Positions 16,232 to 62,603 of a stretch of DNA of 64,000 nucleotides are shown in pieces (position 1 is the stretch's first letter; each line of letters opens with the position of its first letter). The stretch lies in assembly GCA_951406725.2 (NCBI GenBank), contig OX597824.1, positions 48,856,001-48,920,000 on the forward strand, in the 5' to 3' direction. The notes beneath the pieces were generated by a model. It was not told where the DNA came from. It worked only from the letters and a program-made list of their open reading frames with translations, and ran no database searches. Position numbers and translations under genes: made by a program. Source of the stretch: Octopus vulgaris (taxonomy: Eukaryota).

Positions 16232-16465
16232 ATATAGGAAAATGTGTTGTTAAAAATACACCTAAATTTCAAAAACTCGTAAATGTTTAAAATTTTAGTT
16301 TGTCAACATTGAAACTTTTAAAGATGTTTTTTCTAATTTTAAACTTTTACCATTGATAAACAAAAAATATTGTCGAAACTAGTTTGGTATATATGTAAAC
16401 AAATGCATTTTAGACATTTACAAGTTTTTGAAATTTAGGTGCATTTTCAACATATTTTCCAATAT
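16232..16465. mobile_element. Inverted-repeat element containing a hammerhead-like motif
   Basis: Imperfect arms of about 60 bp at 16232-16293 and 16407-16465. Confidence 0.7.
16348..16389 (+). ncRNA. Degenerate minimal type-I hammerhead ribozyme
   Basis: TACCA-TTGATAA-ACA(loop)TGTC-GAAAC-TA-GTT-TGGTA. Stem I TACCA/TGGTA is perfect; the CUGANGA core has two substitutions. Confidence 0.55.
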
Positions 16466-17749
16466 ATATATATACATATATACTGTATATACACACACAC
16501 ACACACATATATATATATATATATACACGCACACACGCACACACACACACATATATATATATATAATAATAATAATAATAATAATAATAATAATAATAAT
16601 AATAATAATAATAATGGTTCTTCATATATATAATATGTATGTATGTCTTCGGGTCTGTGTTTGTCCCCCACCACTGCTTGACAACCGGTGTGGGTGTGTT
16701 CACGCCCCTGTAACTTTGCGACTCGATAAAAGTGATTGATAGAATAAGTAGAAGGCTTTAAAAAGGTATTAGGTTCGATTCATTTAACTAAAAAGTTTTT
16801 TTAATGGTGGTGCTCCAGCATAGCCGCAGTCTAATAACTGAAACAATTGAAAGATAAAAGATAAATAAATGCACCTATCTCAGAAGAGAAACTACCATCT
16901 AAGTAGATTCATAGCAGCCTACGAAGCCTACAACTCCAATAACCCCACGCTCTGAGTTCTTACTCTCATCTGACTGCCACCTGGCGCTTCTGAATTTAAC
17001 TAAGAAGCACTATGCGTTACTCAATGTGCTAGAAATTGCAGCCAAAGTTTTTGTTGATGACACACTACTGCCTGAAAAACGAATGCTCTAAAATCTTGAT
17101 ACACCGAGACAAAAGAAAACGTGGAATGTGAGCAGTTGGAGAAATTATAATCACAGGCCCGATTGAGCAGGACTACAACCTATGGTTAAACAAAAGCAAC
17201 TTACTAATATATCGACCCATATTCATGCACGCATTCATAGATATCGATTTATATATATATATATATATATATATATATATATATATATATATATATATAT
17301 ACTGTATATATATATATAATATATATGTATACACACACACATACATATATATCCATTTATATACATACATATATATATACATACATACGTATATATATAT
17401 ATATATATATATATATATATATATATATATATATATATTGAAAAAGAGAGAGAGAGAGAGAGAGCTCCCTATTTAATCGGTTGTCCATTAAACTGTCTTC
17501 TCTGCCTATTAACCTATTTACCTATCTACCTACTTATCTATTTACTAATTTGTTTATCTATTCTAATTTCATATCGATCTTTTGATCAGCACCAGCTTTC
17601 TACTGATTTCGCTGTTAAATTTCGTTTGATATGTGTGCGTGAGTATATGTGTGTCTGTATCTGTGTGTAAATTATATATATGAAGAACCATTATTATTAT
17701 TATCATCATCATCATCATCATTATTATTATTATTATTATTATTATTATT

Positions 17750-18225
17750 GAGTGAGTGAGTGAGTGGGAGAGCAACGCACGCCATGAAAGTGACGCTGTG
17801 ATACAAATATACGAAGCCCAATATACCCATCATGATTACCCGTCTGATAAGAGTATACCAGCCACATGCGCATGAATTGCAAGTGAGGTCCAGTTAGAAT
17901 TTTCTTCAGGTCGAGTAGCCCATCCCACTCAGAAGGTTCCTGAGTAAGGATTGTTTAAAGATAATGAACGAAACATCCATGCTTCTAAATGTGAATTATT
18001 CAAACGCCAAAGAATCCCTCTCAACACATGGTTATGATGTTCCCCCACTACTTCTGCTCGTGATCAGAGATACACATAACTTCAGCCACTGAGGGACATG
18101 CTCACCTGGTTACAGTCAAGTAGCTGACAAGCAAATCTGTGGTATTAAGCGAAATATTTGTTGTAGCTCAATCAGTTAAGATCAGAAGCCATGAGAGCCA
18201 CTACTTGGTACTACATCAGGGCATT
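17750..18225 (-). mobile_element. Non-coding retroposon-like repeat with (TAA)n tail
   Basis: Homologous to 28990-29271 (+). Both end GCTCTC.CA.TC(..)AATAATAAT. No protein similarity recognised. Confidence 0.65.
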
Positions 18226-18389
18226 TTATTTTATTTTTCTTATTGTCGTATACTACGTATACTTCCCTTTTTTAATACATACCGTGTATACTTTTCCTTC
18301 TTTTTTCATCATTCCATTATATGTAAGCCCCCACACTTTATTCTGTCTTTGCCTCATCCTTCGCCCTGGTGGCAAATAAAATAAATTAT

Positions 18390-61419: not shown

Positions 61420-61861
61420 CTAAATTAAATTAAATGTCCTTATCAAATCTTGCTAAATTGTTTGCCTCTCCTTTCTATTTCAACACACACACACACACAC
61501 ACACACACACACACACACACACACACACACACACACATACATACATACATAAACACACACGCACACACACACATGATAAAAATGGTAAGACAACAAAAGA
61601 ATGAAAGAGACCTCGATATTATGTAAATAGAGGAATTTACATGCCGAGGTGGATTTCCACCTCGGTACCCGAAACTCGGAGTTTTATCATGGCTACTGAA
61701 TAATTGTCACATATTCCATTTACAGACATATATATATATATATATATATATATATATATATATATATATATATATATATATATATGTATGCATGTGTGTA
61801 AGTCATTTAAGAGTCCATAAGTCATGAAAAAATGCACTCGTATATCTGTCAATAGAGATGG

Positions 61862-62121
61862 TATATTATCCGAAGTGTACAGTATTATACATACATAACG
61901 GCCAAGCTTATCAATCGGTTTCGCACTAGAGATTCAGCGGAGTTTTAAGTAACAATTCGATTATGTAACCCTGCGCTCATCAGAGGTAGCCGTTATGAAA
62001 TTAAATATGGCGACTCGCATGATCGGTTTGTTACTTTACACTTCGTTCAATCCCTGGCGCGAAACCGATTAGTTAGATTGACGGCGATGGATATATAAAG
62101 CTGTACACTTCGGATAATATA
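61862..62121. mobile_element. Fold-back element with perfect 21-bp termini and a minus-strand hammerhead-like motif
   Basis: TATATTATCCGAAGTGTACAG / CTGTACACTTCGGATAATATA, with imperfect inner arms. Minus strand reads TACCT-CTGATGA-GCGC...GTGC-GAAAC-CGATT (61988 to 61913). Confidence 0.75.
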
Positions 62122-62179
62122 TATATATATATTATACGTAAATATAAGAGAGTAACCACTATGTGGTCGACTCTAGCAC

Positions 62180-62603
62180 TAAAAATAGATCCGCTAGGTT
62201 TCAGCCACGAAGAATTGTTTCCGATGAAAGTTAGCACGACTACTAGCGGAAACGAACAGGGCAAATAAAAATAACAAAAATGCAGATTAGTTCAGGACAA
62301 TTGTTTCGCTATTAATAAATTATGTAATTTTACTCACATAACATATCTGTAGCTCCTCAGCTGAACCCGTCCAGAATACAAATTACTCAACCGCAAGCCC
62401 GATTTTACCATAACGATAAACACACGTGCGGTTCAGTCGATTGCATTCGCTGTTATAATTCAAGTGCCCCCGCCACAGCCCGCCAAAATTCACGGAAACA
62501 GATACTACATCAAAAATTTTGCCCTGTTCGTTTACGCTAGTAGTCGTGCTAACTTTCATCGGAAAAAATTCTTCGTGGCTGAAACCTAGCGGATCTATTT
62601 TTA
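62180..62603. mobile_element. Inverted-repeat element with about 86-bp near-identical arms containing CCGATGA...GAAAC
   Basis: Arms 62180-62265 and 62518-62603; TGTTT-CCGATGA-AA-GTTAG/CTAGC-G-GAAAC. Confidence 0.8.

Follow-up and report, generated by a model that had tools for sequence, protein, structure and literature searches.

Fold-back families with predicted minimal hammerhead ribozymes in the Octopus vulgaris genome: likely products of Penelope-like element enzymes, with variant 3:8 core pairs

Endonuclease-containing (EN+) Penelope-like elements (PLEs) that carry hammerhead ribozymes in their pseudo-long terminal repeats have a published layout with a tail, an inverted copy and two start sites for reverse transcription (PMC8557442; PMC11167929). 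Their hammerheads are of a minimal kind, with a short stem I, an extra base before stem II and a palindromic stem III, and occur as many unrelated families per genome, with U3-A8 cores and dual motifs on opposite strands 100–700 bp apart (PMC4209133). Non-LTR retrozymes, tandem units of a few hundred nt that lack an open reading frame (ORF) and have one type I hammerhead per unit, have been proposed to be non-autonomous PLE derivatives that borrow the PLE enzyme (bioRxiv 2026.07.22.740005; PMC7229834). Penelope elements are abundant in coleoid cephalopods (PMC8967140). In this study, we analyzed a 64-kb stretch of Octopus vulgaris DNA (assembly GCA_951406725.2, contig OX597824.1, positions 48,856,001 to 48,920,000; hereafter the window) from a 2.8-Gb genome assembled as 227 contigs. 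A first-pass annotation had marked nine loci with hammerhead-like motifs there, numbered F1 to F9 along the coordinates. We consider it highly probable that the nine loci represent dispersed families with a predicted minimal hammerhead near the 3′ end, whose fold-backs would have formed when a PLE enzyme with reverse transcriptase (RT) and GIY-YIG domains joined two truncated cDNAs 5′ to 5′ at one target.

All nine loci proved to be members of dispersed families with relatives on many contigs. First-look searches returned 1130, 78, 748, 2957, 1462, 3304, 117, 1681, and 1081 candidates for F1 to F9, respectively, totals that are not copy numbers; for each family 40 candidates were scored and 20–30 loci, the best-scoring matches, were fetched. 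A first descriptor with a short stem II and no extra base gave zero matches and was abandoned, as was one restricted to C3-G8, which detected two window loci and which F1, F3, and F6 escaped. The strict descriptor used here lets position 3:8 be any Watson-Crick pair. By this measure the window copies of F1, F4, F6, and F9 pass, whereas 200 local shuffles of the window averaged 0.045 passing loci and never gave more than 2, and an Rfam scan of the window gave no hit at the gathering score. The copies of F2, F3, F5, F7, and F8 fail as they stand, contrary to the earlier statement that all nine show the full motif. At the family level, seven of nine consensuses have the complete minimal type I hammerhead (core, stems I and II, palindromic stem III, and H17) on the sense strand, and none has it on the antisense strand; the F2 consensus, built from 20 copies, is among those that pass, and F7 does so with a 3-bp stem II. 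The per-copy pass rate tracks family age, from 25/30 in F9, 20/25 in F6, 15/21 in F4, and 15/25 in F1 down to 4/20 in F2, 2/18 in F5, 1/20 in F7, 1/19 in F3, and none of 23 anchored copies in F8. Stems I, II, and III vary in sequence between families while their pairing is kept, and several stems II enclose 45–70 nt, a point of difference from the published minimal hammerheads (PMC4209133). The families are mostly unrelated, as had been proposed; F4 and F7, however, cannot be called so because they have 23 nt in common at 96% identity over the ribozyme, the only sequence common to any two families. Co-folding predicted an intermolecular palindromic stem III in each of the three pairs tried, and the F9 fold has a z score of −3.7.

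Hammerhead cores exceeded shuffled expectation and were concentrated in inverted repeats in an unselected 600-kb sample made up of 200 kb beside the window and 40 arbitrary 10-kb pieces. We counted 18 motifs, against shuffle means of 1.2 (5 shuffles) and 0.65 (20 shuffles); one of the 18 is a chance match in a short interspersed element (SINE). Six lie in inverted repeats, which cover 7.4% of the bases (P 0.0014), and all six face outward. The association is weaker in the other direction: when up to one mismatch was allowed, 8 of the 74 inverted repeats in the sample had an outward motif and two an inward one; an apparent inward G3-C8 hit was discarded, as it came from merged repeats and is truly outward. 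Judged by homology or by their own motif, 11 of the 74 stem from hammerhead families, with two more for one arm and another two by eye, 16 are SINE-like, and 45 are unassigned. Inspection of 25 unassigned tight hairpins yielded three loose outward cores and one inward. Hammerhead families account for about 11–15 of the 74 sampled inverted repeats. In the sample, 31 tight hairpins have no assigned family, several of them 93–98% identical and (TA)n-flanked (for example L238:7750–8297, L263:705–1209, and L267:8703–9378, in our numbering of fetched sequences); these may represent more PLE ends or a separate kind of repeat.

The organization of the elements is that of EN+ PLEs in several respects. 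Six families supplied 141 loci (one F9 locus lacked an anchor, and duplicates were removed save one segmental pair). In these, 81 of 82 inversions join 5′ to 5′, placing an inverted 5′-truncated copy at the 5′ end, and one joins 3′ to 3′. The share of fold-backs in this set is inflated because palindromic queries rank fold-backs first, a bias that leaves the polarity unaffected; most copies of several families are one-armed. The 3′ ends are fixed and face outward, and the inner junctions and arm lengths vary. Each family has two fixed sites for its outer ends, approximately 47 nt apart in F6, 100–110 in F9, and 140 in F4. Among 42 fold-backs of these three families, 32 pair a short with a long end, two short ends occur together once and two long ends never, and nine could not be classed (P 4e-9 in a post hoc test on classes assigned by eye). 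A tail of 45–140 nt lies at one end only in 32 of the 33 classifiable fold-backs, and one-sided tails were also seen by eye in F1, F5, and F8. The 3′ flank begins in microsatellite DNA at 60 of the 141 loci, including 18/29 for F9 and 13/25 for F1. Target site duplications (TSDs) of 7–13 bp accompany 6 of 25 F6 copies; in F9 there is one, in low-complexity DNA. The EN+ PLE reports likewise describe partial tandems, an inverted truncated copy, a tail at one end, (TA)n bias, a C-terminal GIY-YIG domain, and two RT start sites (PMC8557442; PMC11167929). In contrast to those elements, truncation is extreme in the octopus (arms mostly 30–400 nt), the tails exceed the published 30–40 nt, and the pairing of one long with one short end is here counted across families.

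F6 and F9 differ from the truncated ends just described. Each is a closed tandem unit without an ORF and with one hammerhead, 357 nt long in F6 (longest stop-free frame 101 aa) and 503 nt in F9 (67 aa); such closure leaves no room for an ORF. No such unit was seen for F2, F3, F4, F7, or F8. In unit size, lack of an ORF, and one type I hammerhead per unit F6 and F9 resemble non-LTR retrozymes (PMC7229834; bioRxiv 2026.07.22.740005), unlike which they have minimal cores and occur mostly as one or two units with inversions and tails. The elements are a mixture, some being 5′-truncated ends of coding PLEs and others ORF-less units.

Links to coding PLEs were sought in the fetched copies and their 1.5-kb flanks. 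For F1, about 750 nt of upstream sequence in 3 of 25 copies leads to the C-terminus of a GIY-YIG domain, which has a CX4CxxC linker and the same sense as the ribozyme (tblastn E 5e-39); two further tblastn matches near F1 copies were excluded, being outside the sequence that the copies share. Of 10 longer copies in each of F4 and F8, one from F4 and three from F8 run into relics with GIY-YIG-like motifs, two of the F8 relics also having RT-like motifs, all read by eye; the relics of the two families are similar to one another (E 3.5e-6). The coding link is firm for F1 and thin for F4 and F8, where it is by motif only. Judged by linker and RT motifs, F1 would belong to the Neptune clade and F4 and F8 to Nematis. 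Elsewhere in the genome there are open 781-aa frames with RT and GIY-YIG domains, the latter above the Pfam cut-off and RVT_1 just under it. Among 30 GIY-YIG loci, 12 have a sense U3-A8 hammerhead 445–951 nt downstream, and one has an A3-U8 hammerhead. One coding PLE is itself a very recent full-scale fold-back (L323:1821–4983), in which 766-nt identical inverted arms, with a hammerhead in each, enclose the coding frame. One PLE family (L317–L322) has many open 781-aa frames with RT and GIY-YIG domains, together with an overlapping frame on the upstream side that reaches 479 aa.

What seems modestly new here is the set of core pairs G3-C8 and A3-U8, the PLE layout being already published. The first-pass annotation had read a C(T/C)GANGA-like box at every locus; this stands for the six C3-G8 families, but F1 and F6 are fixed for U3-A8 and F3 has G3-C8. 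The F3 family, whose stems I and II are 6 bp each and which has one extra base, has G3 in 34 and C8 in 29 of 38 copies; as evidence this old family is weakened because position 16.1 is G in 9 of the 38. Elsewhere in the genome, however, F3 has a young G3-C8 sister family (2088 candidates, 95–98% identity) with G3 in 28/30 and C8 in 29/30 copies, 17 of which pass the descriptor. Four features set this sister apart from F3: the free position 7, loop II, the palindrome of stem III, and one outer pair of stem I. It is an ORF-less element of about 210 nt whose 5′ start is fairly fixed about 20 nt upstream of the core (L271:3915–4268; L397–L426). A young coding PLE family (1418 candidates; L307, about 2040–2085; L367–L396) has A3 and U8 in 30/30 copies, 26 of which pass with a 2-bp stem II, and a sense endonuclease C-terminus lies upstream in 11 of the 30. 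Two U3-A8 families have the same compact layout as this A3-U8 family. One apparent U3-A8 family was rejected as a chance match inside a tRNA-like SINE. Each of the four Watson-Crick pairs (C-G, U-A, G-C, and A-U) is thus fixed in different families. In 1.95 Mb of fetched DNA, from loci chosen for Watson-Crick families, 201 hits are Watson-Crick at 3:8 and 8 are mismatched; five of the eight are single mutants of known families, and no family is fixed for a mismatch. Covariation at 3:8 to U3-A8 is a known natural variant (PMC4209133; PMC3088659), and that pair is the only one in the consulted part of the variant survey (PMC3088659). The available text on minimal PLE hammerheads does not describe G3-C8 or A3-U8 (PMC4209133), and in the literature searched we found these pairs only as engineered swaps (PMC3884650; PMC8495972). 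Because that coverage is incomplete, their novelty is not established.

These observations most likely reflect a scheme in which a PLE enzyme would cut both strands of an AT-rich target and begin two cDNAs on the element RNA, each from its own initiation site, giving one long and one short end; both cDNAs would stall early, and their 5′ ends would then be joined. Cutting and the use of two start sites are taken from published work (PMC11167929). We infer one start site per arm because 32 fold-backs pair a short with a long end. F3, F6, and F9 would have moved in trans, borrowing a PLE enzyme, and the hammerheads may cut only as dimers formed through the palindromic stem III. A transcript reading through a fold-back would bury the ribozyme in a long predicted hairpin (−256.9 kcal/mol and z −38 for F4), so that such copies would be by-products without activity and might serve as substrates for ADAR.

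Several observations weigh against the origin proposed above. F5 is borderline, one of its consensuses passing and another failing at stem I, and the F8 consensus keeps the core box and stem II but fails on a C-A mismatch in stem III. Only one of five pieces of the F4 and F8 relics gave a Pfam GIY-YIG match, below the cut-off (E 0.038); of the two homologue searches one was empty and the other returned a single unnamed protein, and the Atlas look-alikes have GIY-YIG on 11% and 27% of their members. The fetched copies of F2, F3, F5, F6, F7, and F9 gave no ORF link, and no parent ORF turned up for F6, F9, or the G-C families. No TSDs were seen in the F1, F4, F5, or F8 copies. The loci were top-scoring matches, a choice that favors fold-backs where the query is palindromic, and hammerhead cleavage is a prediction from sequence.

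Long inverted arms, little coding sequence, and many copies would also fit miniature inverted-repeat transposable elements (MITEs) or fold-back DNA transposons in which hammerhead-like words arose by chance, and a genuine Tc1/mariner element with inverted ends does lie in the window (38871–40170). MITEs, however, would not be expected to have mostly one-armed copies, variable arms, and unlike ends, nor to lack identical termini, a fixed length, and a fixed short TSD, as was found here, and in place of chance words we see a motif far above shuffles and sense ORF links. The survey of ends, arms, and TSDs largely refutes this explanation, to which we give very little credence. As the first-pass annotation had argued, the elements instead look like ribozyme-bearing derivatives of PLEs, given their polarity, tails, variable truncation, the F6 duplications, and three ORF-linked families; that claim needs amending in that more than one class of element is involved. 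A second alternative accepts PLE ends but has the fold-backs arise after insertion, through template switching or repair at (TA)n tracts. The frequency of microsatellites in the 3′ flanks would suit it, as would the fold-back made by a tRNA-like SINE (33752–33823) and the 45 unassigned inverted repeats of the sample. Had a duplication followed insertion, the two ends would be copies of one another, but two different family-specific ends are present in 32 of the 33 classifiable fold-backs, and the inversion polarity is fixed; we therefore regard formation after insertion as improbable, though less so than MITEs.

The hammerheads, above all those with G3-C8 and A3-U8, might be non-cutting structural signals or relics. 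Precedents are not lacking: PLE hammerheads are poor cutters in vitro (PMC4209133), eight of nine Xenopus dimers tested stayed uncut (bioRxiv 2026.07.22.740005), and insertion in vitro did not need cleavage (PMC11167929). Moreover, about 20 nt on the 5′ side of the core are retained in the young G-C family, implying that uncut RNA was copied. On the other side stand the retention of Watson-Crick pairing at 3:8 described above, without a fixed mismatch, and reports that double 3:8 swaps regain some activity in vitro (PMC11167929; PMC8495972). On balance we think loss of cutting unlikely, although it is the most serious of these alternatives. A further proposal, raised with the first description of the loci, concerns A-to-I editing. 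The octopus has very high editing and an unusually high predicted share of double-stranded RNA (dsRNA), Penelope is heavily edited in a lizard (PMC5625713), and the predicted F4 hairpin is near-perfect. Editing of fold-back arms is thus a plausible idea with precedent. That the fold-backs should be the main dsRNA source for coleoid hyper-editing is doubtful, in our estimation more so than a loss of cutting, since hammerhead families supply only 11 of the 74 sampled inverted repeats outright, fewer than the SINE-like group, and since no host exon was recognized among the 70 of 165 open frames of the window that were scanned, where the clear matches are transposon domains.

Within the window, the loci had been placed correctly by the first-pass annotation, and consensus mapping showed several to overrun the earlier coordinates by their one-sided tail. 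Seven had been described as lying in or beside inverted repeats. Self-BLAST gives clear ones at six; the arms of F3 (decayed) and F7 (short) are visible only against family consensuses, and F2 is a solo copy. F1 (16232–16465, + strand) is a fold-back at the 3′ end of a coding PLE, with its long arm at 16289–16460 on + and a short inverted arm at the left; its U3-A8 hammerhead lies at 16348–16389. F2 (28374–28581, +) has a C3-G8 hammerhead at approximately 28446–28535 with stem III decayed in this copy. F3 (35208–35469, +) is a decayed fold-back whose source element, about 200 nt long, lacks an ORF, and its inverted arm lies at 35208–35292; the family consensus puts its G3-C8 hammerhead at approximately 35282–35326, and a decayed motif near 35420 was rejected as the ribozyme. 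F4, F5, F6, F8, and F9 have no single strand. F4 (53740–54237) consists of arms 53740–53923 (−) and 53924–54090 (+) and a tail at 54091–54237, with one C3-G8 hammerhead per arm (cores 53847–53853 on − and 53977–53983 on +). The F5 fold-back (56283–56768) has a tail starting at 56686, a short arm without the first core box, and a C3-G8 hammerhead on + (56520–56616) with G17 in this copy. F6 (56950–57627) holds about 1.4 of its tandem units on − (56955–57465), with the U3-A8 hammerhead at 57113–57157 on −, and an inverted arm on + that ends in a tail (57573–57627). F7 (61046–61501, +) comprises a copy at 61094–61501, a short inverted 5′ piece at 61046–61096, and a decayed C3-G8 hammerhead at approximately 61256–61338. 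F8 (61820–62121) has a long arm on − with a tail, a short arm on + (62018–62121), and a C3-G8 core at 61977–61983 on −. F9 (62125–62603) holds 394 nt of its unit on − (62125–62518) and an 86-nt inverted arm on +, with an intact C3-G8 hammerhead at 62290–62367 on −; the segment 62134–62179, once considered a tail, is ordinary unit sequence, and the short arm is clipped. Six of the loci lie within 8.4 kb (P approximately 0.011 for clustering, post hoc).

The window also contains a frameshifted GIY-YIG-like relic (41870–42275, +), unlinked to F1–F9, which the first-pass annotation had recognized. The identification holds at the level of motifs read by eye, with 10 further related loci at 65–76%; Pfam gave no match, tblastn no confirmation, and a hidden Markov model built from endonucleases of the same genome E 0.59, and no hammerhead was found near it. 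Other residents are a long interspersed nuclear element with an open 1045-aa frame encoding AP endonuclease and RT domains (2984–6118), the Tc1/mariner element named above, which retains DDE_3 and HTH relics, further mariner relics at 53200–53517 and 57905–58264, and weak C2H2 zinc-finger-like Pfam matches below the cut-off at 41326–41676 (−). A SINE that is abundant and in which A and B boxes like those of a tRNA were recognized by eye occurs at 12171–12581, 21476–21710, 33633–33823, and 43087–43278, its copy at 33752–33823 being a small fold-back (a palindrome by self-BLAST).

Descriptors limited to C3-G8 overlook three of the nine families, and Rfam overlooks all nine. The pairing of one long with one short end allows the dimer model of PLE insertion, with its two start sites, to be tested on genomic data. 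An editing link would matter only if RNA shows the arms to be edited more than other inverted repeats. It is possible, and we put it forward tentatively, that this one animal genome has recently amplified, active hammerheads in all four Watson-Crick 3:8 versions, including the first natural G3-C8 and A3-U8, and that its fold-backs are the trace of a PLE enzyme acting as a dimer and priming, in every case, one arm per RT start site, with maybe about 50,000 dsRNA hairpins as a by-product (a rough extrapolation of 11 per 600 kb scaled to 2.8 Gb). The young families are natural variants suitable for assay. Covariation at 3:8 argues that poorly cutting ribozymes remain selected for an active fold, which bears on what the hammerheads of PLEs may do.

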